The notes under the pieces: model-generated
Databases searched by the model: none
What the model saw: the letters and a program-made list of their open reading frames with translations, nothing else
Told to the model about the DNA's origin: nothing
Position numbers and translations under genes: made by a program
Shown here: one piece after another, positions 1,845 through 51,264 of the stretch
How the letters are laid out: each line of letters begins with the position of its first letter
How positions within the stretch are numbered: the stretch's first letter is position 1
Assembly (NCBI GenBank): GCA_965223845.1
Contig: CBDCXR010000004.1
Span: 6,432,001 to 6,496,000 of the forward strand
Origin: Planctomycetota bacterium
GTDB taxonomy: Bacteria; Planctomycetota; UBA8108; SXIK01
DNA length: 64,000 nucleotides
Direction: 5' to 3'

Positions 1845-4800
1845 ATGCGAATGGCAGTCTCGATCTTCTGTCTCGTCGCCACCATCGCTACCGCGATCGC
1901 GGCGTTCACCATCCTCGCGCGCGGAGCACCGGAGCCGAGCATGGAGCTTCACCGCGCGCGCGTGAGCGGCACCGAGGAGCGGCGCGTGCAGCTCGAGGAA
2001 CATCTCGAGCGGCAGAAGTGGACGCGAAAGGCGCTCATCGGGGGGCTCTTCGCGGCGACCGTTCTCTTCGCTGCGGGCGCCTTCCTTACGCTTGGCGGTT
2101 CGCGAGCCTCGTTCGTGCGAGTCGTTCTTCTCCTCTCGCTGTGCGGGGTCCTCTGTGACTGTCGGCGGAAGGACTACCGCGAGCACGCCGACAAGCAGTC
2201 GTACGCGGCGCTCCTCCACAAGACCGCGGGGACGCCGTGGGAAGTTCCGGCCGAGTTCTCGATCGATCCCGATCCTCGATCGCGGCTATTCGACCCGAGC
2301 GACCCGGATTTTCCCTCGCTGCCCCGACCGGATCGATTGCTCGACTCCTACGAGCTCCCGGAACTCGTCAGAGCGGCCGCGCGGATCGAAATTCGGGCGG
2401 GCGAATCCGCGGACGAGGAGGCGATCGAGGGACTCCGGATCCACCCGATCCCGCCCGACTATTGGGACGCCCTACCCCGCGCGTGCCTCGCGCGGATGCT
2501 CGAGGTGGAGAGCGTCGTCGAAGAGTACCGGCTCGCCTACGAGGAGGAACCGCCGGAGACTCTGCTCGACGCCGCACCGCGTCTCAGCCTCGCGAATATT
2601 GTCGAGCTCGCGCTTCTCAACAGTCGCGAGTACCAGACGCGAAAGGAGATCCTCTACCGCGCTGCGCTCGCTCTGACGCTCGAGCGGTTCGAGTTCGTTC
2701 CGCAGTTTTCGCCGTTCGGGAACGGGGTCGACGCCGACTACACGATCACGCGGTCGCCGGCGACCGGCGGAGATCGCGTCGAGTCGAGCTCGATCGGAAG
2801 CGGCGCCGCGGGGGAGGCGCTCCTCGCGACGGGGGGGACGGCGATCGCGCGGTTCGCGAACGACATCGTGCTCACGTTCGACGGTCCCGGCGGGTGGTCG
2901 AAGGAGATCAGCTCCGAGCTTCTCTTCGAGCTTTCGCAGAGCCTGTTCCAGCGCGACGTGCGGCTCAATCCGCTCGTTCAGTCCGAACGGGATCTCGTCT
3001 ACGCGGCGCGCGATTTCGCCCGCTTTCGCAAGGAGTTCTTCTTCCAGTTCGCGAACCAGTACTACGGTCTGCTGCGGGAGTACCGCGGTATCGAGATCGA
3101 GGCGCAGAATTACTTCTCGCTCGTCCGCACGTTTCGGCAGGCGCAGGCCGAGGTCGGCCTCGGGGTGCAGCGGAGCACGACGCCCGTCGAAGCGGATCAG
3201 TTCGAGCAGAGCATGCTCTCGGGCCGGAGCGATCTCATCTCGACGTGCAACCGGCTCGAGCGCGCGCTCGACAGTCTCAAGCTGTCGATGGGGATTCCCA
3301 CCGAGACGCCGATCAATCTCGATCTCTCCGAGCTTCAGCTCCTCACGCTGCGCAATCAGATCGAAGTAACGGGTGAGCGGGCGCGTCGGTGGCGCGCCCG
3401 CGTGCTCGAGCGGCGACAACGGGACAACCCGAATCGTGACGAGGTCCTGAACGGAAATATCTTCCTTCTCGAGCGACTTCTCGAGTGGGTTCGTCTTCGC
3501 TGGCGACTCGGCTTCGAGGTGGAGCAGCGCGCGGCGCTCGAGCTCTCTCTCGCGCTCGCGCGCGTCGATCTCGCCCGCGCCGAGCACGTACGCGCTCTCG
3601 CGGCTCTCGCCGAGGTGCGGGATTCCGAGCTACCGGTGCCGATCATTCTCATCTTTCAGCGAACGCGCGATGTGGTCGCCACGCTCTTCCGGGTCGCGGA
3701 GCTTCAGATCCCGCTCGCGCTAGCGCGCGGCCGGACCGCGGACGAAGTCGAGCCGCTCGGCGAGCGACGAGCCGCGCTGTTCGCTCGCGACGCGGCGCTC
3801 GGCGAGCGCGTCGCAGAGGTGCTCCGCGATCTTCAGTCCGACGATCTGAGTGGGCTCGTGAACGACGTGGAAGGCATCCGGACCGAGCTGGAGGCGCTCA
3901 TCGGAGAGCTCGATCAACTCGCTGAGCGAGATCCCGCGCGGGAGAATCTCGAGACCACTCTCGCCGAAACCGATTTGCTGGTCGCCACTCTCGACGCTCT
4001 CTTCGAGGGAGCGGAGCTAGGTCTCGCGCCCGTCGATATCAGCGCGAGGGACGCGATGCGAACGGCGCTCGTTCAGCGTCTCGATCTCATGAATGAGCGC
4101 TGGCGACTCGCCGACGACCGGCGAGACGTCAAGATCGCCGCGGACGATCTGAAGAGCGTCCTCGATCTGAACGCGAGCCACTCGATCGGCTCGCGCGATC
4201 GAAAGCCGCTCAAGTTCACGTCGCACGACAGTCAAACGCGTCTCTCGCTTTCGTTCGATCTCCCGCTCAATCGCCGGTCGCAACGAAACGTCTACCGCCG
4301 CGCGCTTATCGACTACCACGCGGGGCGACGGAGTCTCATGGAGCTCGAGGATGCGATCAAGTTCGACATCCGTGACGGTCTTCGCACGCTCGAGGAGACG
4401 CGCATCCAGTATCCGATCGCGGTCACGCAAGCCGGACTCGCGGCCGAGCAGGTGATCAGCGTCCAGCTCCAGCTTACGCTCGGGTTCGAGCGGGTGCGTG
4501 GAACCGACCTCCTCGACGCGCTTCAATCGTCACGGCGGGCGCTGATATCCGTGGCGAACGCGCGGATCGGTTATCTCGTCGACCGGGCTCAGTTCGCGCT
4601 CGATCTCGAGCTCATGGAGATCGATTCCGCGGGGATGTGGACGGCGATCGATGATCCCAGCTACCGGCCGGAACCGAACGTCGCGTACCCCGAGAACGCC
4701 GGACCGGCGTACGGTGACATTCCGAAGTACGTGTTTGTCTCGCGGGAAATCCGGAGCATGCTGCGCGATCATCCTGTACCCGGGGAGACGCGAGCGGCGA

Positions 4801-5006
4801 ATCAGGACGAGGATCGAAGCGCCGCCGAAAGCCGCGCGGTCGCGACCGACGTTCCCGCGGAGACGCCGGACGGCGCGGACGCGGCCGTGGCCGAAGAGCC
4901 CGCGGGAGCGGACGACGAACCGGAGACGACATCGACCGAAGGTGACGGCGCCCCCGCGGGCGACTCGCCGCCTCTCGACGCGAGCGAAGCCGAGGAGTCG
5001 CCGTAA
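1845..5006 (+). CDS. Large TolC-family outer-membrane efflux protein with N-terminal membrane extension and internal helical insertion
   Basis: Two OEP-like repeats (LSLANIVELALLNSREYQ...; ISARDAMRTALVQRLDLMNER...LSFDLPLNRRSQRN); internal lipobox-like LLLSLCGVLCDC followed by RRKDYREHAD; acidic disordered tail; follows adaptor and permease. Alternative start GTG ~2115. Confidence 0.8.
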   Translation: MRMAVSIFCLVATIATAIAAFTILARGAPEPSMELHRARVSGTEERRVQLEEHLERQKWTRKALIGGLFAATVLFAAGAFLTLGGSRASFVRVVLLLSLCGVLCDCRRKDYREHADKQSYAALLHKTAGTPWEVPAEFSIDPDPRSRLFDPSDPDFPSLPRPDRLLDSYELPELVRAAARIEIRAGESADEEAIEGLRIHPIPPDYWDALPRACLARMLEVESVVEEYRLAYEEEPPETLLDAAPRLSLANIVELALLNSREYQTRKEILYRAALALTLERFEFVPQFSPFGNGVDADYTITRSPATGGDRVESSSIGSGAAGEALLATGGTAIARFANDIVLTFDGPGGWSKEISSELLFELSQSLFQRDVRLNPLVQSERDLVYAARDFARFRKEFFFQFANQYYGLLREYRGIEIEAQNYFSLVRTFRQAQAEVGLGVQRSTTPVEADQFEQSMLSGRSDLISTCNRLERALDSLKLSMGIPTETPINLDLSELQLLTLRNQIEVTGERARRWRARVLERRQRDNPNRDEVLNGNIFLLERLLEWVRLRWRLGFEVEQRAALELSLALARVDLARAEHVRALAALAEVRDSELPVPIILIFQRTRDVVATLFRVAELQIPLALARGRTADEVEPLGERRAALFARDAALGERVAEVLRDLQSDDLSGLVNDVEGIRTELEALIGELDQLAERDPARENLETTLAETDLLVATLDALFEGAELGLAPVDISARDAMRTALVQRLDLMNERWRLADDRRDVKIAADDLKSVLDLNASHSIGSRDRKPLKFTSHDSQTRLSLSFDLPLNRRSQRNVYRRALIDYHAGRRSLMELEDAIKFDIRDGLRTLEETRIQYPIAVTQAGLAAEQVISVQLQLTLGFERVRGTDLLDALQSSRRALISVANARIGYLVDRAQFALDLELMEIDSAGMWTAIDDPSYRPEPNVAYPENAGPAYGDIPKYVFVSREIRSMLRDHPVPGETRAANQDEDRSAAESRAVATDVPAETPDGADAAVAEEPAGADDEPETTSTEGDGAPAGDSPPLDASEAEESP

Positions 5007-5053
5007 GGCTCGCGCCTCCGATCACAACGGGCGAGAATGCCCCGGTTGTAGAT

Positions 5054-5581
5054 TTGTCTCGCAAACTCCGAGGGCGACTCGCGGTGCAGCTAGAGGATGC
5101 GATTACGTTCGGCTTGGCGTGGCTCGGCTACGCTCTCCTCGCGTCGGACTTCGCGCGTCGAGCTCGTGGTCGGCGTGACGCGCGCGTGAGCGCGCTGACC
5201 GCGCTCGTAGCGATCGTTCACGTCGCCTGTGTGTACGTCTTCCGTTTCGACGGGTCCGTGCTCGCTGCCTGGCAGAAGAGTGCGGCCGGATTCGTGATCT
5301 TTCACTCGGCGCTGCTCACGATCGTGCTCGCGCCGATGGTCTTCGAGCCGTGGCGTACGCGCATGGTCTTCGTCTCCTTCGGAGTCGTGAGCTTCGGCGG
5401 TCTCGGTGCGCCGTTTCGCTATCCCGAGCTCGGTGTTCTCGCGATCCCGCTTTTCACGGTGTTCGGGGTGGCGCTCGTCTTCGCGTGGCGCGGTCGGAAG
5501 ATCGAGGAAGAGACCCACACGACGAGCGCGAAGCGGACGCGAAGGAAGACGAGGGAGAGGGAGAAGGAAGGAGAGAGATAA
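5054..5581 (+). CDS. Hypothetical multi-pass membrane protein
   Basis: About 5 hydrophobic segments; start may be GTG 5084; last ~20 codons derive from a repeat/purine tract. Confidence 0.65.
   Translation: MSRKLRGRLAVQLEDAITFGLAWLGYALLASDFARRARGRRDARVSALTALVAIVHVACVYVFRFDGSVLAAWQKSAAGFVIFHSALLTIVLAPMVFEPWRTRMVFVSFGVVSFGGLGAPFRYPELGVLAIPLFTVFGVALVFAWRGRKIEEETHTTSAKRTRRKTREREKEGER
5516..5557 (+). repeat. Copy of ACGAAG-rich dispersed repeat arm
   Basis: cacacgacgagcgcgaagcggacgcgaaggaagacgagggag is nearly identical to 38046-38088. Confidence 0.75.
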
Positions 5582-5653
5582 GCGGGGGAAGAGGGGAAGA
5601 GAACGGAGAGAGGGGCGAAGCCCTCGGACGCGGCGCATCGGGAAGCTGCACCT

Positions 5654-5884
5654 TCACTCCGGTTCCGGGTCCGCCGCTTTCGCGAGTGCGGCTCTCGCGC
5701 GCTCTTCGTTTTCGCGAAGGACCATCAACCGGATTCCTTGGACCAACTGAAACTGCGGCTCCATTCCGCCGCAGTCGTCGGCCGAAACCATAGCTCCGAT
5801 GCCGCACGACTCGAGCACGGCTTTCGCGATCTCGGCTTCGACGGGGTCCGTGCACTCCGCGACGACGACGAGATCGGACGGCAT
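5654..5884 (-). CDS. DUF2007-type putative signal-transducing protein
   Basis: MPSDLVVVAECTDPVEAEIAKAVLESCGIGAMVSADDCGG...GIRLMV pattern; AAGGGAAG upstream of ATG 5884. Confidence 0.8.
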   Translation of the reverse strand: MPSDLVVVAECTDPVEAEIAKAVLESCGIGAMVSADDCGGMEPQFQLVQGIRLMVLRENEERARAALAKAADPEPE

Positions 5885-6060
5885 GACGCTTCCCTTCAGA
5901 AAGGAAATCCTCGTCCGCGTGGATTCGGTCACTCAGAACCGATGCTACCGCCGTTTCGAAGCGCGGGCCAATCGGACGATTCGTTCGCCGCGCGAACTCG
6001 CCCTTCGCGTACTTCGTGTGCACCTCTTACAGGGGAGCGAGCTGCGCTACGGACAGACCG

Positions 6061-8919
6061 TCAGTCCTCGGGCCATTCCGTAACCTCGTCCGCAGCATGC
6101 TGGAGCATGGCGCTCGCGGCGCGGCCGAGATGTCCGAGCGTCGGCGTCGTCCGCGCGTTGAACAACGCGATGAGATTTCGGCCGTCGTGACGGCGAATCA
6201 GGATCGTCGCGGTGCCGGAAAGCGATCCGGAATGCGAGCGATCGAAGCGGCCGGGGGCGACGACCCGATTGGACCACCCGAGCGAGTAGTACGTTTCCTT
6301 CTCGCTCCCGTCGTCGTTGTGGCCCGCGGCGCCCGGCGGGCGGCGAAACATCCACTCGATGCTCTCTTCGTTGAGGATCGGACAGTTCGCCGGGTCATCG
6401 AACGCCGCGGCGAACTTCGCGATGTCCGTCGCGGCGGCGATCCAGCCACCGTGCGAGTCCATCGCCTCGAGGAACCAAGCGCCGTACGGCCACGGCACTT
6501 CTTCGTTGAGGTCCTCGTGAAAGACGGAGCGCCCGCTTCCCGGCTGGTAGTACCGCACCTCGTTCTCCGCGCGGACATCCCGGGTGCTCCCGATTCGCAT
6601 CGCGGTTACTCCGATCGGCTTGAGGACGGCGGCCTTCACGTACTCCTCGTACGACTGGCCGCTTAGCTTCTCGATCACGCGGCCGAGGAGACAGTAGCCG
6701 AAGTTCGAATACGCGTATCGCTCGCCCGGAGCAAAGTCGAGCTTCTGAGAGAACATCGCTCGGATGACGGCGGCGGGACCTGCGGGCGGCTCGACTCCCG
6801 TCTCTTCCGCGAACCGAACCGACTGAAACATCGCGTCGAACGACTGCCCGCGGTCCCAGCCACCGCGATGCTCGAGAAGGTGACGAATCGTGATGTCGCG
6901 GAAGCGCAGGTCGAATTTGTCTCCTGCCGCCGCGATGTCTTCTTCGTAATCGAGAACTTCGAGGATCTTGTCATCGAGGCTCAGTCGTCCGCGCTCGATC
7001 CACTGAAGAATCGCGACGGCGGTCACGGGTTTCGAGATGCTGGCGATGCGAAAGAGACTGTCTGTTCGCACCGGCTCCCGCACCGCGACATCGGAGTAAC
7101 CGTAGCCGCGGGAGAACACGACGCGGCCACGGTCCGTCACCGCGACCGACGCCCCGGGTACGCGGTGTTCCTTCATGAACTCGACGATGCGTCGATCGAA
7201 GCTCGCGAATCGATCGTCGAAATCACCCGTCGATACCTTGTACGGCGCTGCCGTCTCTCGAAATCCCGGTCCGCGGATGACGCGACCGGGACGAGCACCC
7301 GTGAACTCGCCGTCCCTGAGGACGAGTTTCCCGTTCACGACGACGTGCTTCATTCCCTCCGATAGCGCGTGAGGGTTCGCGAAATCGGCGCGGTCGGTGA
7401 GGTTTTCGTAGTCGAAGACGATAACGTCGGCGGCGAGTCCGACGGCGATGCGCCCTCGGTCGTAGGCGAGGACGCAGTTCGCGGCGGCGGCGCTCGCCTG
7501 GGCGACGGCGCGTTCGAGCGTGAGTGCACCGAGATCCCGCACGTAGCGCGAGAGGAGCCGAGGAAAGGACCCAAACGCGCGCGGGTGGGAGGCGGACCGG
7601 CTCGCTCCGGCGGGTCCGACGTCCGTGCAAAACGAAACGAATTCGGCCTGCATCGCGCGGATCTTGTTCGCCTCGGTCATCGTCTCCGGAAGCGCGAACG
7701 CCCCGGAACGAACGAGCGCGAAGAACGTGTCCCAGGGATCCTCGCTCTTCGCTTCGGCGATGGCCGCGACCGAGTTCCCGTCGAGTCCTTCGTACCGGTC
7801 GCTTCCCGTGCGTCCGACGACGATGCGATCCCAATCCTCTCCCGCGTGGCGGAACCAGTTCTCCCAGCCCTCGCCGCTCTCCATCTCGCGCCGAATCTCG
7901 GCGCGGACATCGGGGGACTCGAGACTCTTCAGAAGCTCGTCGCGTCCGTTTGCGAAATGACGTGGGTGAATCAGCGCGGCGATCGAGAGACCGTTGTTCA
8001 CGTAGGGATAGATGTCCGCCGTGATTTGCTCGCCGGCCGCCCGCGCGCCGCGGATGTTCGCGATCGCGAGCTCCATCTTGTTCCAGTTGTGCTTGCCGGC
8101 GGCCTTGAGGTGGAAGATATGAACCGGTGTTCCGCCCTTTCGCCCGATTTCGAGCGCCTCGTCGATCGCTTCGAGCAAGCGGTCGCCCTCGTTTCGCATG
8201 TGAGTGTAGTAGCGGCCGCCGTACTCGCCGGCGACCTGGGCGAGCGCCGCGATCTCGTCGGTGTCCGCGTAGACGGCCGGTGGATAGATGAGCGCCGTCG
8301 AAACGCCGATCGCTCCCGCTTCCATCGCCTCGCGGACGAGAGCTCGCATGCGCACGAGCTCTTCGGGGCTGGGTGCGCGGTCCAGATCGCCGATCACGAT
8401 GCGGCGCACCTGCGTGTGTCCGATCGTCTGGACGACGTTGACTGGAAGCCCCCGAAGCTCGAGGAGAGTGAAGTACTCCGCCATCGTCGTCCAGCCCTTC
8501 CGGCGCCCTCGGTCGGCAGAGAGTGGAGCGGCCGAGCCGCCCTCGCCCGCGTTGATCGTCGTGATTCCCTGCGTGAGTAGATTGATGGCGGTCTTCGGGT
8601 CGCCGACCATCGGCGACGCGGACTGTCCCATCATGTCGACGAAACCGGGCGCGACGACGAGCCCGGTGGCGTCGATCACCGCCTTTGCTTCGCTCTCGGC
8701 GATGCGGCCGATACGCACGATGCGTCCGTCGTCGATGCCGACGTCCGCCACGTACCAGGGTGAGCCGGTTCCATCGACGATGCGTCCGCCGCGAATCGCG
8801 AGGTCGAGGGTGGCTCCTTGGTCGGCGAGCGGCGGCGCAACGCTCGCTCCGTTCACCGCGATCGAGACGACGATGGAGAGAGAGAGCGAGACGATGGCGG
8901 AGCGACTCGAGAGATTCAT
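6061..8919 (-). CDS. Exported N-acyl-D-amino-acid deacylase fused to a beta-lactamase/DD-peptidase-type serine hydrolase
   Basis: Signal peptide MNLSSRSAIVSLSLSIVV; DLAIRGGRIVDGTG, THMRNE, HIFHLK, HPRAFGSFPR, GLAADVIVFD (D-aminoacylase); FRIASISK (SxxK), YAYSNFGY (YxN), HSG (serine hydrolase). The ORF-track start at 9453 is overextended. Confidence 0.9.
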   Translation of the reverse strand: MNLSSRSAIVSLSLSIVVSIAVNGASVAPPLADQGATLDLAIRGGRIVDGTGSPWYVADVGIDDGRIVRIGRIAESEAKAVIDATGLVVAPGFVDMMGQSASPMVGDPKTAINLLTQGITTINAGEGGSAAPLSADRGRRKGWTTMAEYFTLLELRGLPVNVVQTIGHTQVRRIVIGDLDRAPSPEELVRMRALVREAMEAGAIGVSTALIYPPAVYADTDEIAALAQVAGEYGGRYYTHMRNEGDRLLEAIDEALEIGRKGGTPVHIFHLKAAGKHNWNKMELAIANIRGARAAGEQITADIYPYVNNGLSIAALIHPRHFANGRDELLKSLESPDVRAEIRREMESGEGWENWFRHAGEDWDRIVVGRTGSDRYEGLDGNSVAAIAEAKSEDPWDTFFALVRSGAFALPETMTEANKIRAMQAEFVSFCTDVGPAGASRSASHPRAFGSFPRLLSRYVRDLGALTLERAVAQASAAAANCVLAYDRGRIAVGLAADVIVFDYENLTDRADFANPHALSEGMKHVVVNGKLVLRDGEFTGARPGRVIRGPGFRETAAPYKVSTGDFDDRFASFDRRIVEFMKEHRVPGASVAVTDRGRVVFSRGYGYSDVAVREPVRTDSLFRIASISKPVTAVAILQWIERGRLSLDDKILEVLDYEEDIAAAGDKFDLRFRDITIRHLLEHRGGWDRGQSFDAMFQSVRFAEETGVEPPAGPAAVIRAMFSQKLDFAPGERYAYSNFGYCLLGRVIEKLSGQSYEEYVKAAVLKPIGVTAMRIGSTRDVRAENEVRYYQPGSGRSVFHEDLNEEVPWPYGAWFLEAMDSHGGWIAAATDIAKFAAAFDDPANCPILNEESIEWMFRRPPGAAGHNDDGSEKETYYSLGWSNRVVAPGRFDRSHSGSLSGTATILIRRHDGRNLIALFNARTTPTLGHLGRAASAMLQHAADEVTEWPED

Positions 8920-8928
8920 GAGGAAGAA

Positions 8929-8970
8929 TTCACCACGAAGAGCACGAAGGACACGAAGAAAGACGAACGG
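8929..8970 (+). repeat. Copy of ACGAAG-rich dispersed repeat arm
   Basis: ttcaccacgaagagcacgaaggacacgaagaaagacgaacgg aligns with 38044-38086. Confidence 0.7.
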
Positions 8971-9289
8971 TGGGAAGGTTTTGAATTGAGAAGACTCGAG
9001 GTGTGGAATCGGTCTCGACCCATCGCCACAGTAGCTTTGCGTGAAGAGCCGAGCAAGCGGCTGGAGGGCGAGGAGCTCGGACGGGGCACTAACATTCCCG
9101 CGGCTGCGTACGCACAGGAAGGGGCGCATCTTCTCCCGTCCACTCGAACGTCGCGGGCGTGGGTCGGAGCGTTGCTCGGGCGCAGCGATTCGGAGATGAT
9201 TCCCGAGAAAGAGCCTACGAGCGCAGCGCATTGTGAGATACGGTCGGCGGCGGAATCCACGAGGGCTCGAACCGGGGGACACGCGCACC

Positions 9290-10159
9290 ATGAAACGGAC
9301 TGGATTCGCGAGTGGGCTCGGCGTTCTGCTGTCCATCGCGCCCGCATTCGCGCAAGAACTCGAGCTCGATTTCGGCGCGCGCGGGCCGGCACCGGGTCTC
9401 GGTCCAGACCACGTCCGTGTCGTCGCACGACTTCTCATCGCGAGCCCGGACATTCAAGTCCAAGGCTGGAGTGTCGTGATCGGGTCGCGAGACTGCGAGA
9501 TCGTAGGCGCGACCGTGGACGGAACCGTCGCGGAGGATCGATCGGACGGCGGTCCGGGGTGCATCGACCACGGAGGCTTCACTTTCGAGAGAACGTTCAT
9601 CGGGACGGAAGCAGCATCGGGTGACTCCTTCGTGAACAGCGCGATCGTCATGTCGTGCGATTTGGTTGCGGAAGGAAGTCCGCACGACCTCCTCGTCGTT
9701 ACGGCGCGGCAGACACCCGAAGCCGACCCGTGCGGCGATTGCACGTTTTTCTACGAGATCGGCCCCGTACTCGTCGAATCCGACGCGTTCGACCAACCGC
9801 GAACGGTGGAGACGTCCGTTGTCGACCGAGGGAAGACTCGAGAGTTTTCGGTCTCGACGGCGACGGTGAATCCGTGCGGACGAAGATTTCGCCGCGGCGA
9901 CTGCAACGACGACGGCGCGGTCAACATTTCCGACGTCGTCTTCGTCTTGAATTCGCTGTTTCTTCCGAACTCCGACCGCCCCTGCGATGACGCCTGCGAT
10001 GCCGACGACGACGGATTCGTCAATCTCGGCGACGCGATGGTCGCGCTCGGGCTACTCTTTCTCGGGGCGGGCGGTCTTCCGCCTCCCGGCCCGCTCGGCT
10101 GCGGCGTCGACCCGACGGGCGATCAGCTCGACTGCGCCGCGGTTGGCCTATGCGGATAG
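9290..10159 (+). CDS. Exported protein with beta-sandwich (cohesin-like) domain and C-terminal dockerin-like module
   Basis: Signal peptide MKRTGFASGLGVLLSIAPAFA; two EF-hand-like repeats GDCNDDGAVNISD and DADDDGFVNLGD, followed by PPPGPLGCGVDPT. Confidence 0.8.
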   Translation: MKRTGFASGLGVLLSIAPAFAQELELDFGARGPAPGLGPDHVRVVARLLIASPDIQVQGWSVVIGSRDCEIVGATVDGTVAEDRSDGGPGCIDHGGFTFERTFIGTEAASGDSFVNSAIVMSCDLVAEGSPHDLLVVTARQTPEADPCGDCTFFYEIGPVLVESDAFDQPRTVETSVVDRGKTREFSVSTATVNPCGRRFRRGDCNDDGAVNISDVVFVLNSLFLPNSDRPCDDACDADDDGFVNLGDAMVALGLLFLGAGGLPPPGPLGCGVDPTGDQLDCAAVGLCG

Positions 10160-10323
10160 CTCGACACGGAGTTCGGAGCCGGGACGCGATGGCGACGAGC
10201 CTCGCCTCGCTGGGGATGAGCTCCGCCGGATCTCGCCGATTTCAGTCCGATGGGACCTTTGTGGGGTTTAGACGATTTGGGCCTCGGTCTCGGTCGCTTC
10301 CCTCTCCTTTGAAAGTCCCTGTA

Positions 10324-12321
10324 ATGCGAGACCTTCGTATCCCGCTCATCGTTTCGCTCTTCGTGATCGGTGCATCTCCGGCGTTCACCCAGAGCGACGG
10401 CCCTCCCCGTCCCGAAGAGCTCGATCCGGAGGACGGCGTCGCAACGATTCCCAGCCGCGAGGCGTACGAGCGCCTCTCGTACCAGGGTGACGCGGGACGC
10501 GACGCGTACTTGAACGACATTCAATTCGTGAAGTTCCAGCTCGAAAACGCCGGCAGCGACAAGGCGCAGCTCTACTTCATGAACACGAAGCGATACCGGG
10601 CGCACCCGAGATTCATGCAGGCGATCGGAATTCGCAGATTCGGGCGCGGGCGAAGCGGCGGCAACTCGGGGCCGGGACGGCAGATGCGGGGGGCGATCGC
10701 GTACCACCCGCGCGTGCGCGCACCCGACGGGAGCGCGGGCGTCTACACGTACGACTTTCAGCCGAACGACTCGTTTCCGCTCGAACTCCTGGAGTTTTGT
10801 CAGCGACTCATTCTCGAGAAGGCGCCCTTCCTCAAGGGAAAGCTCGTCTACCACCCGCTCCGCGGCGGGCTCGAACCGTACGAGCGAGAGAAAGAAAAGT
10901 ACGCCGAGGCGAAGATCACGGTCTATCTCGACGACGATCTCGAGATGAACCTCGGATTCCTTCCCCTCAATCGCGGGGCGACCTTCGGTCGCTTGCGCAT
11001 CATGAAATCGGCTGGGCTTCCGACGCCCCGCGACGTCGTCCTCTACCGTTCACTTCCGAACGAGCTTCCGCGCGTCGCGGGAATTATCACCGAGGCACGT
11101 CAGACGCCGCTTTCGCACGTGAATCTCCGCGCGATCCAGGACGGCGTCCCGAACGCGTTCGTCACCGGAGCGACCAAGAACTCGGCGATCGCGCCTCTCG
11201 TCGGGAAGTGGGTTCGTTACGAAGTATCGGATGACGGCTTCGAGATCCGCGAAGCCGAGCAAGCGGAGGTCGACACCCACTTCGAGAGCATTCGACCCAA
11301 GGCAAGACAAACGCCGTCGAGGGATCTCTCGGTTACCGAGATGCGGCCGCTGGCGAAGATCGGCTTCGCAGACTCGTCTGCGTACGGCGTGAAGGCCGCG
11401 AATGTCGGCGCGATGCGGACGTTCGGCCTCCCGGAGGGCATCGTCCCCGACGGCTTCGGCGTTCCGTTTCATTTCTACGACGCGTTCATGAAGCACAACG
11501 AACTCTACGCGAAGGCACGCAGCCTCTTTGCCGACCCGGCGTTTCGCGAAGACGGGGACCATCGCTCGGCGGTCCTCGCGCGGTTTCGGTCCCACATTCG
11601 TAGTGGTGATCTACCCGACTGGATGTTCGCGGCGGTCGCGGAGCTGGAGCGTTCCTTTCCGAGCGGGACGCCCATTCGGTGCCGCTCGAGCACGAACAAC
11701 GAGGATCTTCCGCGGTTCAGCGGCGCCGGTCTCTACGGCTCCTACACGCACGATGCGGACGATGGCCATCTCGGACGGACGATCAAAAAAGTCTACGCGA
11801 GTCTCTGGAGCGACCGCGCGTACGAGGAGCGCGAGTTCTACCGCATCGATCACTTTGCCGCGGCGATGGGCGTTCTCGTGCACCCGAGCTACAAGGGAGA
11901 GCGCGCGAACGGGGTCGTCGTGACGACCGATGTTCTCTACGAAACCGACGGCACGTACTACGTCAACGCGCAGGTGGGAGAGGACCTCGTGACGAATCCC
12001 GACTCGGCGTCGGTGCCGGAGGAGGTCCTGCTCGGCTGGTGGAAGGAAGACGGCGCGAAGCTCATGCAGCACTCGAACCGAGTCGCGGCCGAGAAGCGGA
12101 TCCTCGAGCCCGCACACCTGGACGTCCTCAGAACGTGCCTCGGGAAGATCCACGCAAAATTCGCCAAGCTCTACGAGGTCGATCCTGAGGACGAGAACTT
12201 CGCGATGGAGATCGAGTTCAAGGTCGCGAAGGACGGATCGGTCGCGATCAAGCAGGCCCGACCGTGGGTATTTCCATCGGCGCCCGAGCCGCTCGAAGCG
12301 AGCGTGCCCGAGGACGAGTGA
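10324..12321 (+). CDS. Exported PPDK/PEP-synthase-family dikinase (unknown N-domain, phospho-His swivel domain, ATP-grasp domain)
   Basis: Signal peptide MRDLRIPLIVSLFVIGASPAFTQ; AGIITEARQTPLSHVNLRAIQDGVPNA (swivel domain, His codon 11116); YGVKAAN, VPDGFGVP, RSSTNNEDLPRFSGAG, KKVYASLW, EIEFK, KQARP (PPDK_N ATP-grasp). Confidence 0.85.
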   Translation: MRDLRIPLIVSLFVIGASPAFTQSDGPPRPEELDPEDGVATIPSREAYERLSYQGDAGRDAYLNDIQFVKFQLENAGSDKAQLYFMNTKRYRAHPRFMQAIGIRRFGRGRSGGNSGPGRQMRGAIAYHPRVRAPDGSAGVYTYDFQPNDSFPLELLEFCQRLILEKAPFLKGKLVYHPLRGGLEPYEREKEKYAEAKITVYLDDDLEMNLGFLPLNRGATFGRLRIMKSAGLPTPRDVVLYRSLPNELPRVAGIITEARQTPLSHVNLRAIQDGVPNAFVTGATKNSAIAPLVGKWVRYEVSDDGFEIREAEQAEVDTHFESIRPKARQTPSRDLSVTEMRPLAKIGFADSSAYGVKAANVGAMRTFGLPEGIVPDGFGVPFHFYDAFMKHNELYAKARSLFADPAFREDGDHRSAVLARFRSHIRSGDLPDWMFAAVAELERSFPSGTPIRCRSSTNNEDLPRFSGAGLYGSYTHDADDGHLGRTIKKVYASLWSDRAYEEREFYRIDHFAAAMGVLVHPSYKGERANGVVVTTDVLYETDGTYYVNAQVGEDLVTNPDSASVPEEVLLGWWKEDGAKLMQHSNRVAAEKRILEPAHLDVLRTCLGKIHAKFAKLYEVDPEDENFAMEIEFKVAKDGSVAIKQARPWVFPSAPEPLEASVPEDE

Positions 12322-12615
12322 CGGTCGACCCGGAGCGGTATCGAGCGGACAGGGGTCCGTGGACGCCGGTGGAAAGCGGCGACCGAGCGGTTCTCGCGTA
12401 GAATACCGTTTCGCGGTTCGCCCGAGTGACTTCTCGACCGATCGCTCGGGTGTCGAAGCTCGTCCGTGCAATCTTCGCGCACTGCCCGAAGGGCCGGTCG
12501 GGAAGGCGCCGAACGTCGTCGGCGTGCGTGTTTCGGCGGACGCACTTCGCCCGTAGTCGAACACGGTCTGATCGCGATCCGAGCCCGGGCGGGAAGGCGA
12601 AAGCGAGGTAGAACG

Positions 12616-13896
12616 ATGGAAGCGCGATGGGACCGTCTCTCGCTTTCCAAAGTCGAGAATCGCATCTGCGATCTGATAGCGAAGATCGGGGACAAACCGA
12701 GGCACTTCGTCCGGCCCGAGATGTCCCTAGTCGAAGATCTCGGGTTCGACAGCCTTGAGATCGTCGAGCTCATGATGGAGGTCGAAGAAGACTTCGACGT
12801 TTCGCTTCCTGACCGTCCCGACGACCCAGTAAGCAAACAGATCTTTACGAGACATCCGTTCCGCGTGAGAGACTTGGCGGAGTTCGTGTATCGCGAATCT
12901 CGCGCCGGGAGGAGGGACAGTGAATGGACGCGAATGGCGACAGAGCCGCGGCCGGCGCCTACGACCGCTTTTACGCAGCTTGGGGGATCGCTCCTCGACG
13001 ACGCTCGAGCGGTGGATCCGCTGTACGAACCCCTCGGAGACGGCTCCGAAGAAACCTCGCTCTTCCGGAGGTCGACCGACGGAATGCAGTGCGTCCTCGT
13101 CCCGGAATCTTCGGTCGAAATCGGCAGCGGTGAAGAGGGCGCACAGGCGGATGAGCAACCGGCCCACTCCGTACGATTGAGCGAGTTTCTCATCGACGTT
13201 GAACCGGTGTCGACAGCCGCGTTCGCGCGCTTCCTCAATTCCATCGGGGAGATCGATGACGATACCCTGAGGAGGTGGTTCGTTCTCGCGCCCGAAGATC
13301 GTCGAGCTGAGCACATGCCGATCAAGCGGCGCAAAGACAGATGGGAACCCTTCCACCGAGCGGAACTGTGGCCCATGGTTCTCGTCTCGTGGTACGGCGC
13401 CAACGCCTACTCGAAATGGGCGAACGGGCAAGACTGGACCGATGACCGATCGGATGCCATGTTCCTGCCGTCGGACGCTCAGTGGGAGTACGCGGCTCGA
13501 GGAGCCACTCGGCGGAGGTTCCCATGGGGGGAAGAAGAGCCCACACCGGAGATGGCTAGACTGTCTCTTCACCGTTGGGGGACGACCTACTCGCTCGCGA
13601 GTCTTCCGCTTGCGAACGTGAACGAGGAGCTCGGGCTCTCGCCGTTTGGACTCAGACACATGGCGGGGAACGTTTGGCACTGGTGTCGCGACGACTACGA
13701 CCCGAAGTTCTACTCGACCGACGCCGCGAAGGGGCAAGATCCGGTGTGCCGGTCATCGACGGGCGTGAAAAGCGAACGGGGCGGGAGCTGGATCGGCCCC
13801 GCGGATCTCGCGCGCTCGTCGTATCGTCGAGGTCGCCCTCCGCTCGCACGCGGGCGATGTCTCGGATTTCGCTGCGTGGGGCACGTCGAGACTTGA
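12616..13896 (+). CDS. Acyl carrier protein domain fused to an FGE-sulfatase (SUMF1/EgtB/PvdO) fold domain
   Basis: SLVEDLGFDSLEIVELMMEVEEDFDV (phosphopantetheine Ser46); DEQPAHSV, VSWYGANAY, LPSDAQWEYAARG, FGLRHMAGNVWHW, RGGSW, GFRC; GAGG upstream of the ATG. Confidence 0.9.
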   Translation: MEARWDRLSLSKVENRICDLIAKIGDKPRHFVRPEMSLVEDLGFDSLEIVELMMEVEEDFDVSLPDRPDDPVSKQIFTRHPFRVRDLAEFVYRESRAGRRDSEWTRMATEPRPAPTTAFTQLGGSLLDDARAVDPLYEPLGDGSEETSLFRRSTDGMQCVLVPESSVEIGSGEEGAQADEQPAHSVRLSEFLIDVEPVSTAAFARFLNSIGEIDDDTLRRWFVLAPEDRRAEHMPIKRRKDRWEPFHRAELWPMVLVSWYGANAYSKWANGQDWTDDRSDAMFLPSDAQWEYAARGATRRRFPWGEEEPTPEMARLSLHRWGTTYSLASLPLANVNEELGLSPFGLRHMAGNVWHWCRDDYDPKFYSTDAAKGQDPVCRSSTGVKSERGGSWIGPADLARSSYRRGRPPLARGRCLGFRCVGHVET

Positions 13897-19993: not shown

Positions 19994-21406
19994 TTAGGTG
20001 CGTTTCCAGGGCCCGGTGATCGCCAGCGTGTAACCAGGGACCTGAATGTTGAGGAAAAGCGTCATCGGCTCGCCCGGTCCGAAGCACGCTCCGCAGATCT
20101 CCATATCGCTAGTGTAGCGATTGCGCCCCAGGGTGTAGATCTCCCCCTTTCGCGTGACTCCACGCAAGTACTTCACGGGCGCCTCGTCCTCGCAAATGAT
20201 CAGGTCTCCCCAGGGCGCGACGGCGACATTGTCGCAGCGGTTTACGAGCTTCGTGTTGTTCGGTTCGAGGTAGAGCTGCAGACGACCCGGTTGGTCCTTC
20301 TCCTTCGCGGTGGCCTCGAATGGGCTCGGGAAGTAGCGGAAGATCTGTCCCTTGCGACCGATTCCACCGTCGGTGCAGGCGAAGTAAATCTCTTCGTTTC
20401 CGTACCAGATGCCCTCACCGCGCGCGAACACCGCGGCGCCGGCGTCCCGACCGCGCTTGCGCAGGTCGTCTTCGGGCGCCTCCACGTCGTCCATGTCCAT
20501 CCACTCGACATCGAGGCACTCTCCGACAGGAATCTTCGGCGCCCCGGTCGTCGGGAAGTTTCTCGTATCGCAGGACTTTCGATCGCGGACGACTAACGAC
20601 TGTAGTTTGCCGCCCGAGCGCAGATCGCCGCGTTTCTTCGGCAGGAATCTGTAGAGCAGACCGTCTTCACGATCCTCGGTCTGATAAACGACGCCACTCC
20701 TGGGCTCGACCGCAACCGCCTCGTGATTGAAGCGCCCCATCGCCTTGAGCGGAATCGGCTCGACGGGGCCGGTCGCCTGCACCGGAACTTCAAAGTTGTA
20801 GCCGTGGTCCTTCTCGCTCCAATTGAAGTTCTCCTCGCCCACCTTGAGCTCAGGCGTGCCCTTGTCAACAGTCTCCTCGCACGTGATCCAAGTGTTCCAG
20901 GGTGTCGGGCCGCCCGCGCAGTTGCGAGTTGTTCCCGCGAGACTGAGGAAGCTGCGCTCCACGGTTTGAGAGGCCAGGTCGTAGACGAGGGTCGTGGTGC
21001 CTCCAACATGCGGGAACTTGCCCTTGCCCAGATCGTAGACCTTGCTGCTATCCATTGTCGAAAACAGGTGATTGCCGATTCCCCACGGGCCCTTGAAGGT
21101 CTCTTCGGGCGTCAGCTCGTGATTGCGAATCAAGATCACTTTGCCCTTCGGACCCGCGAACGCCGCCATGCCGTCGGGCGCTGCGGGAGTGCGAAAGCCA
21201 TCGCTCATCGGGTCGCCGGCGCGAGAAATCACCTTGTAGGTAAATCCCTCGGGGAGATCGAATACATCGGCGGGATCGCGTTTGAGATCACCGTACACGT
21301 GCACTTCGTTCTGATAGTCCGCGGCCCGAACGAATCGGTTCAATCCCAGGAATCCGGCGCTGACTGCGGCAACGGACCTTAGCGCTTCTCGTCGGCTGAC
21401 GTTCAT
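19994..21406 (-). CDS. phoX: PhoX-family (DUF839) alkaline phosphatase, Tat-exported
   Basis: Tat motif SRREAL; PDGMAAF, RNHE, NCAGGPTPWNTWITCEE, MGRFNHEA, RGEG, CDNV, ICED, EICGACF. Confidence 0.9.
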   Translation of the reverse strand: MNVSRREALRSVAAVSAGFLGLNRFVRAADYQNEVHVYGDLKRDPADVFDLPEGFTYKVISRAGDPMSDGFRTPAAPDGMAAFAGPKGKVILIRNHELTPEETFKGPWGIGNHLFSTMDSSKVYDLGKGKFPHVGGTTTLVYDLASQTVERSFLSLAGTTRNCAGGPTPWNTWITCEETVDKGTPELKVGEENFNWSEKDHGYNFEVPVQATGPVEPIPLKAMGRFNHEAVAVEPRSGVVYQTEDREDGLLYRFLPKKRGDLRSGGKLQSLVVRDRKSCDTRNFPTTGAPKIPVGECLDVEWMDMDDVEAPEDDLRKRGRDAGAAVFARGEGIWYGNEEIYFACTDGGIGRKGQIFRYFPSPFEATAKEKDQPGRLQLYLEPNNTKLVNRCDNVAVAPWGDLIICEDEAPVKYLRGVTRKGEIYTLGRNRYTSDMEICGACFGPGEPMTLFLNIQVPGYTLAITGPWKRT

Positions 21407-21538
21407 GATGCTCAACTGAATCGTGACGAAAGTGAAAGAGTGGACGATGGATCGTTCGGGCAGCGGGAACCCTATCTACGCTGCCGGAGCGCGCTCTTTC
21501 GGTTGTACCCGGCACGTCGAATTCGGCGGGTTCTTTCG

Positions 21539-47664: not shown

Positions 47665-50600
47665 ATGATGTCGAGGTCGAAGGACCGTTGGATGTTCGTG
47701 TCGGCGGCGCTCATCGCGTCGACCCTACTCGTCGCGATCCTCCCTGTTGCCGATGCAACGGCGCAGAGTCTCGTGATCTCCGAGTTCATGGCGATGAACG
47801 ACGACATCCTCGCCGACGAGGACGGAGAGTATTCCGACTGGGTGGAGGTCTACAACGCGGGCGCGGACGCGGTGAGCCTCGCTGGGTGGGCGCTCACCGA
47901 CGACGAGAGCGAGTCGGAGAAATGGACCTTCCCCGAGCTCGAGCTCCCGGCCGGCGGGTTTCTGGTCGTTTTTGCCTCGGGAAAGGATCGCCGCGATCCA
48001 GATGCCGAGCTGCACACGAGCTTTCGCCTGAGCGGGGCCGGTGAGTACCTCGCGCTGGTCGAGCCGGGCGGGGTGCGCACCGTCTCCGAGTATCGCCCCG
48101 AGTACCCGGCGCAAGTTGCGTACGCGTCCTACGGTCGGCCGATGACGACGACGCGCTTCGCCTTCGCGACCGAGGGCGAGGCGGTGCGCTATTTTGTTCC
48201 GACCGACGATAGTCTAGGCGACGCGTGGCGCGATCTCGAATTCGACGACGCCGGCTGGGCGAGCGGACCGACGCCGATCGGATTCGATCAGAAATCGACG
48301 ACGACCTTCGCCGAGATCGTCGCGACCGACGTCGCCGAAGTCTTTCGCGGAGTCAATCCGGGGATCTTTCTTCGGAAGCGGTTTACGTTCAGCGGTGCGC
48401 GCCCCGACGAGCTCGACGTCCTTCTTCTTCGTGCGCGTTACGAGGACGGTTTCGCCGCGTACCTAAACGGCGAGCTCGTGGCGAGCGCGGAAGTGCCGGA
48501 GGATCTCGATTGGAGCTCGCGGGCGGACTCCTCGCGTCAGGCTGGCCGCGAGACGGAAATCGTGCTTTTCGACATTACCTCGTCGCTCGCGCATCTCCGC
48601 GAGGGGGAGAACGTCCTCGCGATCCACGCACTCAACCGAAGCGTGAGCAATTCCGATTTCTTGATTTCGGTCGATCTCGAGGGAGTGCGGGTCGATGGCA
48701 TCGAGACGACCACGCGACGGTTTTTCGACCAGCCTTCTCCGGGACTCCCCAACGGCGAGGGATCGGAACGCATCGCCGAGAGCCCGACGTTTTCGCGTCC
48801 GACGGGGGTCTCGGTCGAAGACGTGATACTCGAGCTGTCGACGGCGACGCCCGGCGGGCAAATCCGCTACACGACGGACGGCTCGAAGCCCGAACCGCAT
48901 TCGCCCCTCTACAGCGGGACGATCACACTCGATCGGACGCTTGTGGTTCGCGCGCGGACGTTCGCGCCGGGCTACGTCCGGAGTCCCGTCAGCACGGAGA
49001 GCTACGTCCGTCTTGCCGACGATGTCGTCAGGTTCTCGTCGGATCTCCCGATTTTCGTGATCAATACGTTCGGCGGGGCCATCACCCCGACCGTCTTTAG
49101 GGACGCCCACGTCTACGTAACCGATGTCGGTGAAGACGGCCGAGCAACGCTGACGGACGGCGTCGATTTCGCCGGACCGGGCGCACTCAAGGTTCGCGGA
49201 TCGAGCACCGAAGGTCGTCCGAAGAAGGCGTTCAATCTCGAACTGCGCGACGATCGCGGCGATGACCGAGCCGCGAGCTTGCTCGGGCTCCCGGCGGATG
49301 CCGATTGGGTCCTCTACGCTCCCTACAACTTCGACCGCGCTCTGATGCGGAATCCGTTCGTGTACGAGGTGAGCAATCAGGTGGGCCGCTACGCGACCCG
49401 CACGCGCTTCTGCGAGGTCTTCGTGAACACGTCGGGCGGTCCCGTGCGCTACGCGAACTACGTGGGGCTCTACGTTCTCATCGAGAAGATCACTCGGGGA
49501 GAGCACCGCGTCGACGTCGAAAAGCTCGAACCGTTCCACAACTCGAGACCGGAGATCACGGGCGGGTACATGCTCAAGATCGATCGACCGGATCCGGGCG
49601 ACATCGGCTTCAACGCCGGCGGAGAGAGCATCAAGTACGTCGATCCGAAGGAAGAGGACGTCACGACGGAGCAACGCCAGTACATCTCGTCGTTCGTCGC
49701 GCAGATGGCGCGGTCGACGTCTTTCCCGGACGCCCACGACGCCCTGAATGGCTATCACGCCTTCCTCGATGAACAGTCGTGGATCGACCATCATCTCATC
49801 AACGAGTTCACGAAGAATCCGGACGCGCTTCGTCTCAGCACCTACTTCTTCAAGCCGCGCGGCGGTGTGATGGAGTACGGGCCGGTGTGGGACTTCGATC
49901 GCACGCTCGGACCGGACGACGACGCGCGCGCCGCGAGCCCGATCGGCTGGATGGGGCCGCATGCTTCCGGTTGGTGGGGCGCGCTGCTTCGCCGGCCAGA
50001 CTTCTCGAGCGCCTACAGCGAGCGCTGGATCGACCTGCGCGAGGGCGCGTTCGCGACGGAGAACCTCCTCTCGATCATCGACAGTATGGCGGCAGAGCTC
50101 GCCGAGGCGCAGGTGCGGAACTACGAGCGGTGGCGTGGTCTCGTCAACCCGAACGGCGGTTGGGAGAACGAGGTGCGCTCGCTCAAGAATTGGGTGACGC
50201 AGCGCGTCGCGTGGATGGACAGCGAGCTCCTTCTTCCCCCAGAGTTCAGCCATCCCGGCGGCCCCGTCTCGGCCGGGTTTACCGTCTCACTCCTCACGCC
50301 GAAGGGCGACATCTACTACACGATCGATGGTTCCGATCCCGCGAACCGGGGGGACATCGCGGCGACGGCGCGGCTCTACGACGGGCCGATCCCGATTGAG
50401 GGAACGATGGCGATCACTGCGCGGACGCGCTTCGGAGAGACTTGGAGCCGCCCGGTGGACGAGGTCTACGCGACGGGAGTGCCCCGTCTCGTCGTCACGG
50501 AAGTGAACTACGACCCGCCGAAGGATGCCGAGACGGATTTCTCTGGCGCAGACCGAGAGTTTATCGAGCTGCAGAACGTCGGTGACGTGCCGATCGACCT

Positions 50601-51264
50601 GACGGATTGGGAGCTCGGCCCGCGTCCGAGCTTCGACTTCAACGAGAGTGCAGTCAAGACGCTCGCACCCGGCGAGTTCCTGGTGATCGTGAACGACCTC
50701 GAGGGATTTGTCTCACGCTACGGCGACGAAGGGATCCAGATCGCGGGAGAGTACACTCGGAGCCTCGGAAGCAGCGTGCAGCCCATCGGGGTGATCGACG
50801 CGAACGGATCGCCGGTCGTACAGTTCAGCTACGATGGCAATTGGTATCCCGAGGCGAAGAAAGACGGTGGTCACTCCATCGTCATCCGCGATGCTCGCGC
50901 GGCACCCGAGACGTGGATCCACGGGGAGAGCTGGCGGGCGAGCGCGGCGGTCTTCGGGTCACCGGGCGCCGAAGATCCCGATCCGACCCCGGGCGGTCAG
51001 ATCCCCGGCGATCACAATCAGGACGGCCGATTCAACATCGCCGACGCGATCGGTCTCCTCGGCTATCTCTTCGAAGGGACGGAGGCGCCGTGCGCAACCG
51101 AGGACGCGGTCACCGCTCTCCTCGACGTGAACGGCGATGCTCGAGTGAATATCGCCGACGCGATCTTCTCTCTGAGCTACCTCTTCGTCGACGGGGAGCC
51201 ACCGGTCTTCGGGATCGACTGCCGGCCGATCGCGGGTTGTGGGACGGTGTGCGTCGACGGGTAG
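47665..51264 (+). CDS. CotH-family kinase with lamin-tail domains, Fn3-associated/chitobiase domains and C-terminal dockerin-like module
   Basis: Signal peptide; LVISEFMAMN...DWVEVYN (LTD); IRYTTDGSKP; KVRGSST, DWVLYAPY, YVGLYVLIEKI, KNPDA, GPVWDFD (CotH); VTEVNYDP...EFIELQN (LTD); GDHNQDGRFNIAD and DVNGDARVNIAD. Confidence 0.92.
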   Translation: MMSRSKDRWMFVSAALIASTLLVAILPVADATAQSLVISEFMAMNDDILADEDGEYSDWVEVYNAGADAVSLAGWALTDDESESEKWTFPELELPAGGFLVVFASGKDRRDPDAELHTSFRLSGAGEYLALVEPGGVRTVSEYRPEYPAQVAYASYGRPMTTTRFAFATEGEAVRYFVPTDDSLGDAWRDLEFDDAGWASGPTPIGFDQKSTTTFAEIVATDVAEVFRGVNPGIFLRKRFTFSGARPDELDVLLLRARYEDGFAAYLNGELVASAEVPEDLDWSSRADSSRQAGRETEIVLFDITSSLAHLREGENVLAIHALNRSVSNSDFLISVDLEGVRVDGIETTTRRFFDQPSPGLPNGEGSERIAESPTFSRPTGVSVEDVILELSTATPGGQIRYTTDGSKPEPHSPLYSGTITLDRTLVVRARTFAPGYVRSPVSTESYVRLADDVVRFSSDLPIFVINTFGGAITPTVFRDAHVYVTDVGEDGRATLTDGVDFAGPGALKVRGSSTEGRPKKAFNLELRDDRGDDRAASLLGLPADADWVLYAPYNFDRALMRNPFVYEVSNQVGRYATRTRFCEVFVNTSGGPVRYANYVGLYVLIEKITRGEHRVDVEKLEPFHNSRPEITGGYMLKIDRPDPGDIGFNAGGESIKYVDPKEEDVTTEQRQYISSFVAQMARSTSFPDAHDALNGYHAFLDEQSWIDHHLINEFTKNPDALRLSTYFFKPRGGVMEYGPVWDFDRTLGPDDDARAASPIGWMGPHASGWWGALLRRPDFSSAYSERWIDLREGAFATENLLSIIDSMAAELAEAQVRNYERWRGLVNPNGGWENEVRSLKNWVTQRVAWMDSELLLPPEFSHPGGPVSAGFTVSLLTPKGDIYYTIDGSDPANRGDIAATARLYDGPIPIEGTMAITARTRFGETWSRPVDEVYATGVPRLVVTEVNYDPPKDAETDFSGADREFIELQNVGDVPIDLTDWELGPRPSFDFNESAVKTLAPGEFLVIVNDLEGFVSRYGDEGIQIAGEYTRSLGSSVQPIGVIDANGSPVVQFSYDGNWYPEAKKDGGHSIVIRDARAAPETWIHGESWRASAAVFGSPGAEDPDPTPGGQIPGDHNQDGRFNIADAIGLLGYLFEGTEAPCATEDAVTALLDVNGDARVNIADAIFSLSYLFVDGEPPVFGIDCRPIAGCGTVCVDG

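Follow-up and report, generated by a model that had tools for sequence, protein, structure and literature searches.

Introduction

The described enzymes closest to the protein analysed here combine an ATP-grasp domain with a swivelling phospho-histidine (His) domain, in orders that differ from family to family. In PEP synthase (PEPS) and PPDK the ATP-grasp is followed by the His swivel and a C-terminal pyruvate-binding barrel, and in PigC, RedH and RPH of L. monocytogenes (PDB 5hv1) an N-terminal ATP-grasp precedes a central substrate domain and a C-terminal His domain, as laid out for RPH in PMC4844700, where K22, R117 and T136 are given as needed for activity. GWD1 and PWD have their acceptor domain first, then the His swivel and a C-terminal ATP-grasp, with a central domain of 444 aa in GWD1 (PMC13553574). 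GWD is held to be confined to starch-storing eukaryotes, the few bacterial sequences being put down to transfer (PMC6260743; 10.64898/2026.09.25.754361), and the available part of PMC7569903 mentions no bacteria in connection with it. A further case comes from the phosphoramidon cluster, which has a ligase-dikinase-MFS gene layout, and whose PPDK-like TalE (MK644118; ~79 kDa as His-TalE) N-phosphorylates Leu-Trp (PMC6482885).

Among exported kinases, CotH is encoded together with a polyphosphate (polyP) polymerase and a DUF4956 protein beside pel operons (10.1101/768473; 10.1101/2024.04.20.589940; PMC12345266) and also in C. perfringens NELoc-2 (PMC2879425), and the available text of PMC12345266 reports this trio as not found outside pel loci. 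For S. intermedius, the authors proposed that polyP remains cytoplasmic and described the DUF4956-type membrane protein as MgtC-like with an ACT domain; in the parts of these sources available to us, a drop in aggregation is reported for the membrane-protein and CotH knockouts only, not for VTC, and the first two shifted the Pel level in opposite directions (10.1101/2024.04.20.589940; PMC12345266). Given these opposite Pel effects, and with no aggregation loss reported for VTC, a simple linear pathway fits badly. No report on the activity of a bacterial VTC or DUF4956 protein was found in the full-text literature searched, and the available part of PMC10657179 contains nothing on bacterial VTC.

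Domain architecture and catalytic residues

The gene under study lies in a window of 64 kb, by which we mean the whole stretch of DNA that was analysed, and has the following features:

10324..12321, + strand: gene for P0001, a predicted exported dikinase-like phosphotransferase of 665 aa
10324..10389, + strand: predicted Sec-type signal peptide, residues ~1-22 (positive by heuristic; probable cleavage before Gln23; judged also from homolog N-termini)
10405..10953, + strand: N-domain, residues ~28-210, alpha/beta by secondary structure, with conserved Lys70, Asn87 and His94
10954..11295, + strand: swivelling phospho-histidine domain, residues ~211-324, with the His265 codon at 11116-11118
11329..12276, + strand: ATP-grasp nucleotide-binding domain, residues 336-651, with K357, R454, E460, D461, S473, E631, Q644 and R646

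An earlier note on this DNA had described a GWD-like order with the His swivel ahead of a C-terminal ATP-grasp, and this layout is borne out: the N-domain comes first, then the His swivel, and the ATP-grasp ends at residue 651 of 665. PEPS and PPDK share with P0001 an ATP-grasp with beta-phosphate-transfer residues and a swivelling phospho-His, but in a different order, and the order of RPH, PigC and RedH is reversed in P0001; moreover, the acceptor domains of RPH and PEPS are unrelated to the N-domain, and both enzymes are cytoplasmic. P0001 scores 62.5 bits against TIGR01418 (cut-off 739.75), 58.3 bits against NF041857 for RPH (cut-off 999) and 12.9 bits against GWD1_pHisD (PF22973; gathering cut-off 27), to which P0257, the best of the members with a listed score, also stays below the cut-off at 23.2 bits. 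In 36 of 62 members, GWD1_pHisD outscores every PEP-utiliser model on the His domain, these matches being weak (best E 4.9e-05). P0001 further differs from GWD in its small alpha/beta N-domain (~185 aa separate the signal peptide from the His domain, whereas the central domain of GWD1 alone has 444 aa), in the lack of CBM45 (Pfam found no CBM in P0001, and neither CBM45 nor a glycoside hydrolase partner was found in it or in 87 scanned fusion proteins), and in belonging to a bacterial family that is predicted to be exported, often on adhesin-like stalks. Judged by these comparisons of sequence, P0001 is not a PEPS, PPDK, RPH or GWD member.

His265, which the earlier note took for the phosphorylated residue, is kept in all 270 family proteins of our alignment, and K357, R454, E460, G467 and Q644 are invariant wherever covered. 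The alignment pairs K357, R454 and S473 with the RPH residues K22, R117 and T136. The loop at 467-473 may resemble that of GWD/PWD. The nucleotide site of P0001 looks intact and resembles a normal adenylate site, so that no feature of the sequence calls for polyP; the sole oddity is His520, present in 264 of 269 family members, where PEPS, RPH and the cytoplasmic Streptomyces relatives have Gln. An invariant phospho-His, an intact nucleotide site and the swivel-type phosphotransferase mechanism that had been proposed are all supported.

In the N-domain, K70 is conserved in 254 of 263, N87 in 246 of 265 and H94 in 263 of 264 covered rows, and conserved basic residues are few (K70, R45, R122, H91 and H94). 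This domain is presumed to be the acceptor site, or site of the second half-reaction. It has no match in Pfam, NCBIfam, PHROGs or PDB sequences, and whole-model fold searches of P0001 returned ATP-grasp and swivel matches only, which fill the list and mask the N-domain. Its single-sequence model (pLDDT 35.9) was too poor for use, and the leads of an ESM Atlas part search were all below 0.9, among them a Myxococcota hypothetical protein (0.81) and an algal GWD1_pHisD cluster (0.77). Stand-alone N-domains were also sought among short proteins and discarded, as the four matches among 141 candidates were all apparent fragments or frameshifted members.

Family size, export signals and surface fusions

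Of 8000 candidates with a similar length, 3072 are homologs of P0001, and 1044 matches at E up to 1e-30 were obtained among 50% representatives. A simple heuristic, used in place of SignalP, called a signal peptide in P0001; it was positive for 102 of the 120 homologs closest to P0001 and for 89 of 150 distant homologs, and for none of 600 internal decoys. From these 150 distant relatives, a non-random pick of 87 was scanned for further domains (E cut-offs 1e-3, 1e-3 and 1e-8): 24 carry FN3 and 23 cadherin or cadherin-like domains, five a T9SS tail, three CWB2, two SLH and one RTX repeats, and none has a CBM45, CotH or VTC domain. The whole module of residues 33-653 (~620 aa) is embedded in proteins of up to 3769 aa, and two distant relatives hold two complete dikinase modules each; giant surface proteins thus carry it as a portable unit, a point that the earlier note missed. 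Its proposal of export is well supported by the conservation of the heuristic signal peptide in close homologs and by these surface-type fusions. Of its refuting conditions, the two that sequence can address, a signal peptide or a His265 that is not conserved, both failed to refute the proposal. No full-length exported family member was present in phage and plasmid collections.

Many family kinases have N-terminal EF-hands, and small EF-hand proteins are encoded directly downstream in three loci (L020, 4514-5224; L009, 9896-10459; L066, 2665-3153), hinting at calcium binding. One member (L079, 189-2072) comes from a contig of 2 kb that binning assigned to a Poseidoniales archaeon, yet it clusters with Poribacteria sequences, which may reflect transfer or mis-binning.

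Cytoplasmic relatives in Streptomyces

The family also has cytoplasmic relatives in dipeptide-type clusters, likewise missed earlier. Three Streptomyces plasmid genes code for the full architecture including the N-domain (hhalign E 6.7e-39, ~25% identity), and the two tested lack a signal peptide and retain K70 and H94. These dikinase genes sit between those for a BacD-like amino-acid ligase and an MFS transporter, within a PAS-HTH regulator, BacD-like ATP-grasp ligase, cytoplasmic dikinase and MFS transporter arrangement (L081, 6448-12756; L082, 6510-12900; L083, ~4300-10900). The orphan cluster probably makes a phosphorylated dipeptide. Its gene layout is that of TalE, which is of similar protein size; the likeness to TalE is one of layout and size only, and the Streptomyces enzymes themselves differ from P0001 in lacking a signal peptide and in their low identity. 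Because they keep K70 and H94 beside a dipeptide-type ligase, the comparison suggests that the N-domain of the family binds an organic, possibly peptidic, acceptor.

A VTC-DUF4956 pair beside the kinase gene

A scan of GTDB gave at least 547 confirmed stretches, of which the best 80 were used as loci; these come from Planctomycetota, Verrucomicrobiota, Poribacteria, Acidobacteriota and other phyla. Searches with HMMs over six frames, confirmed by Pfam except for three close copies found by HMM alone, revealed, in 12 of these best 80 loci of at least 547 (11 of the 63 with full flanks), a same-strand VTC + DUF4956 pair that abuts the kinase gene. The orthologs that adjoin the pair are at 50-55% identity. 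Three gene orders occur: DUF4956-VTC-kinase (L010, L020, L034, L045, L074), VTC-DUF4956-kinase with ATGA overlaps (L057, L059, L061, L080) and kinase-VTC-DUF4956 (L041, L042, L073). Gaps range from -4 to 138 bp in the nine loci with the pair upstream of the kinase, and each of the 12 VTC genes found across 1.01 Mb of flanking sequence lies on the same strand as the kinase gene, either directly next to it or one gene further on.

Poribacteria synteny and generic families aside, this pair is the only recurring cross-phylum neighbour in the best 80 of at least 547 loci; recurrent neighbours in Poribacteria loci were dismissed as plain synteny among close relatives. No recurrent glycan operon, amylase or CotH was found among 83 same-strand neighbours scanned (282 neighbours were called), and no CotH gene occurs in the best 80 of at least 547 loci. 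The pair is absent from 68 of these 80, 22 of which represent one Poribacteria clade, and a six-frame translation of the 64-kb window gave no VTC or DUF4956 match. In a quick tree of the kinase (81 rows), linked loci occupy seven places with unlinked relatives between them; with 23 of its 78 inner branches open, the tree is compatible both with repeated recruitment and with one ancestral linkage that was lost many times.

The linked VTCs form three divergent groups, with 20-26% identity to that of L059 outside its own group. They match the catalytic domain of yeast Vtc4 at E 2e-19, and equivalents of its residues R264, R266 and E426 (PMC9911596) are kept in 12 of 12. In the yeast complex (Vtc4/Vtc3/Vtc1), Vtc transmembrane units, some fused and some separate, build the channel; DUF4956, with two to five hydrophobic segments in the three members tested, has no match among PDB sequences (best E 0.85), so that a channel role could be assigned to it by analogy only.

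The linkage of an exported dikinase family to VTC/DUF4956 is apparently new. As far as sequence can tell, this family is apparently a widespread, undescribed exported variant of the dikinase superfamily; we found no description of it, of its VTC/DUF4956 link or of polyP export by the pair in the full-text literature searched, which leaves most subscription journals outside.

In two Acidimicrobiales loci, a phytase-like gene on the minus strand is divergent from the kinase (L063, 6388-7497; L070, 6227-7378).

Other enzymes in the same slot

We opened six of 16 plasmid matches to one VTC. CotH adjoins in one of them and a phytase-like protein (PF13449) in four, in one case behind a phosphate transporter; the sixth has no adjoining same-strand gene and has HAD phosphatase and phosphonate ABC genes nearby. 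Clear signal peptides are present in CotH and in two of three phytase-like proteins inspected. Therefore, three unrelated exported phosphoryl-handling proteins, CotH, phytase-like and dikinase, alternate beside VTC-DUF4956. Exported kinases such as CotH raise the question of where their phosphoryl donor comes from. In both cassettes an exported kinase, often with FN3-type modules, is encoded beside VTC and DUF4956, the dikinase occupying CotH's place in 12 of the best 80 of at least 547 loci, but the two kinases have unrelated folds and the dikinase of our window has no cassette nearby.

The CotH-VTC-DUF4956 locus is that of Deinococcus taeanensis (L084, 3611-6421), with no pel gene in its 5-kb flanks. 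The four Alphaproteobacteria operons (L085-L088, ~4400-8400) read DUF4956-VTC-(phosphate transporter)-phytase-like, and their PF13449 protein is a candidate extracytoplasmic polyphosphatase.

Neighbourhood of the gene in the window

Around the P0001 gene, terminators occur at chance number and a promoter-like site was not found. A signal-peptide protein with a C-terminal dockerin-like domain (9290-10159, +; E 2.7e-4, below the cut-off) is encoded 164 bp upstream, and the gene directly downstream (12613-13896, +) codes for an unusual protein in which an acyl-carrier domain is joined to one of FGE-sulfatase-like (SenA/EgtB-related) type. The closest relative, L001, has a dockerin-type gene nearby; otherwise neither of these two neighbours recurs in the best 80 of at least 547 loci, and both genes were dropped as operon partners because they are not recurrent.

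Farther away, the window encodes an amidohydrolase (D-aminoacylase-like) fused to a beta-lactamase-family serine hydrolase (6061-9453, -), with relatives in L049 and L066, and a PhoX alkaline phosphatase with a twin-arginine-like N-terminus (19994-21415, -) 8 kb from the kinase. A 1199-aa CotH kinase (47665-51264, +; CotH E 5e-46) with signal peptide, lamin-tail and FN3-associated domains lies 35 kb from the dikinase; since neither has VTC/DUF4956 with it, orphan copies of cassette-type kinases do occur. Next to it, a 1764-aa protein (51508-56802, +) joins DUF4011, an AAA helicase and an MTES_1575 nuclease, a layout which we take to resemble candidate defence genes.

Proposed mechanism and alternatives

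The reading that we favour, tentatively and at somewhat less than an even chance, is that P0001 is an exported swivel-His kinase and functional analogue of CotH, fuelled by polyP and phosphorylating a surface peptide or polymer. It builds on the architecture, conservation, export signals and linkage in relatives reported above, from which we infer all of the chemistry, the donor and the acceptor. P0001 is predicted to be periplasmic or surface-tethered. A phosphoanhydride donor would bind in the C-terminal ATP-grasp and be attacked by His265, the terminal phosphate leaving and phospho-His265 staying, a step that we propose because of RPH/GWD chemistry and the intact residues. The His domain would then swing to the N-domain, where Lys70, Asn87 and His94 may hold an organic acceptor to which the phosphate would be transferred; the likeliest acceptor is a peptide, a protein or a polymer of the envelope at the cell surface. 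As for the fuel, gene context points to a cytoplasmic VTC-domain polymerase making polyP and a DUF4956 membrane protein passing it out, where it could serve as donor directly or by charging an outside adenylate pool. The dikinase may thus be one of several interchangeable outside ends of the VTC-DUF4956 cassette, filling CotH's slot.

In its broadest form, which we regard as doubtful, VTC and DUF4956 would form an exporter resembling eukaryotic VTC that delivers polyP as an extracytoplasmic energy currency, into which CotH, phytase-like and dikinase proteins plug; the dikinase family would then be the first swivel-His dikinase to work outside the cell on polyP, not ATP, phosphorylating surface molecules. 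Against polyP speak the 68 of the best 80 loci of at least 547, and the window itself, that have no pair. The earlier note had deduced a need for extracytoplasmic ATP: export stood up, while ATP as the supply now has a rival in polyP, the VTC + DUF4956 pair being the only cross-phylum neighbour.

An exported X,water dikinase that simply runs on ATP (environmental, leaked or supplied by a host) and phosphorylates a surface acceptor has a low though appreciable probability, and would reduce the VTC/DUF4956 link to a co-regulated phosphate economy. It agrees with the intact adenylate site, with the 68 of the best 80 loci lacking the cassette, and with the use of ATP by the characterised relatives RPH, GWD and TalE (PMC4844700; PMC13553574; PMC6482885), but does not explain why an abutting, partly ATGA-overlapping linkage recurs in three gene orders, nor why exported CotH and phytase-like proteins take the same slot.

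Both the nucleotide site and the cassette would be accounted for if polyP were a second substrate bound at the N-domain, so that the enzyme either turned polyP and AMP into ADP or ran ATP + H2O + polyPn -> AMP + Pi + polyPn+1, thereby regenerating outside nucleotides or banking the energy of scavenged ATP. The conserved N-domain Lys and His could bind phosphate, and a side route of GWD yields ~18% ADP (PMC13553574). However, the cytoplasmic Streptomyces enzymes encoded next to a dipeptide ligase retain this Lys and His, which speaks for an organic acceptor, and the five conserved basic residues of the N-domain are few for a polyanion groove; we consider this possibility unlikely.

Improbable, in our estimate, is an ecto-nucleotide diphosphohydrolase with water as final acceptor (ATP -> AMP + 2 Pi), serving to scavenge phosphate or to clear extracellular ATP from hosts or biofilms: GWD loses ~80% of ATP this way in vitro (PMC13553574), phytase-like proteins and a phosphate transporter occupy the same cassette slot elsewhere, and a phytase-like gene flanks the kinase in L063 and L070, yet a three-domain swivel with a separate invariant N-domain site (His94, 263 of 264) exceeds the needs of a hydrolase. 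A bacterial glucan,water dikinase that acts outside the cell on insoluble glycans, starch-like or other, and opens them up for degradation is very improbable, the GWD-like domain order, the weak GWD1_pHisD matches and the mostly marine, polysaccharide-rich PVC and Poribacteria genomes of the best 80 of at least 547 loci being outweighed by the absence of CBM45 or a glycoside hydrolase partner from P0001 and the 87 fusion proteins, the lack of any amylase or glycan locus that recurs among the 83 neighbours scanned, and an N-domain far smaller than the central domain of GWD (PMC13553574). A glucan or antibiotic acceptor is unsupported on the same grounds of CBM45 and glycan operons, so that the interpretation of the earlier note is supported in part.

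Implications

In the literature covered, dikinase-type enzymes are all cytoplasmic or plastid, a pattern that this family, apparently built for export, would break. The family is widespread, and its export appears to follow more than one route (Sec signal, T9SS tail, RTX repeats, wall anchors), so that marine and host-associated bacteria seem commonly to carry out energy-requiring phosphorylation outside their cells. The presence of a second, unrelated exported kinase in the VTC-DUF4956 slot makes the donor question concretely testable, and a compact three-gene operon is available in the cultured Stieleria marina K23_9 (L034). As a prokaryotic relative with the GWD order of domains, the family bears on the origin of starch kinases, and it may also represent a polyP-driven biocatalyst.
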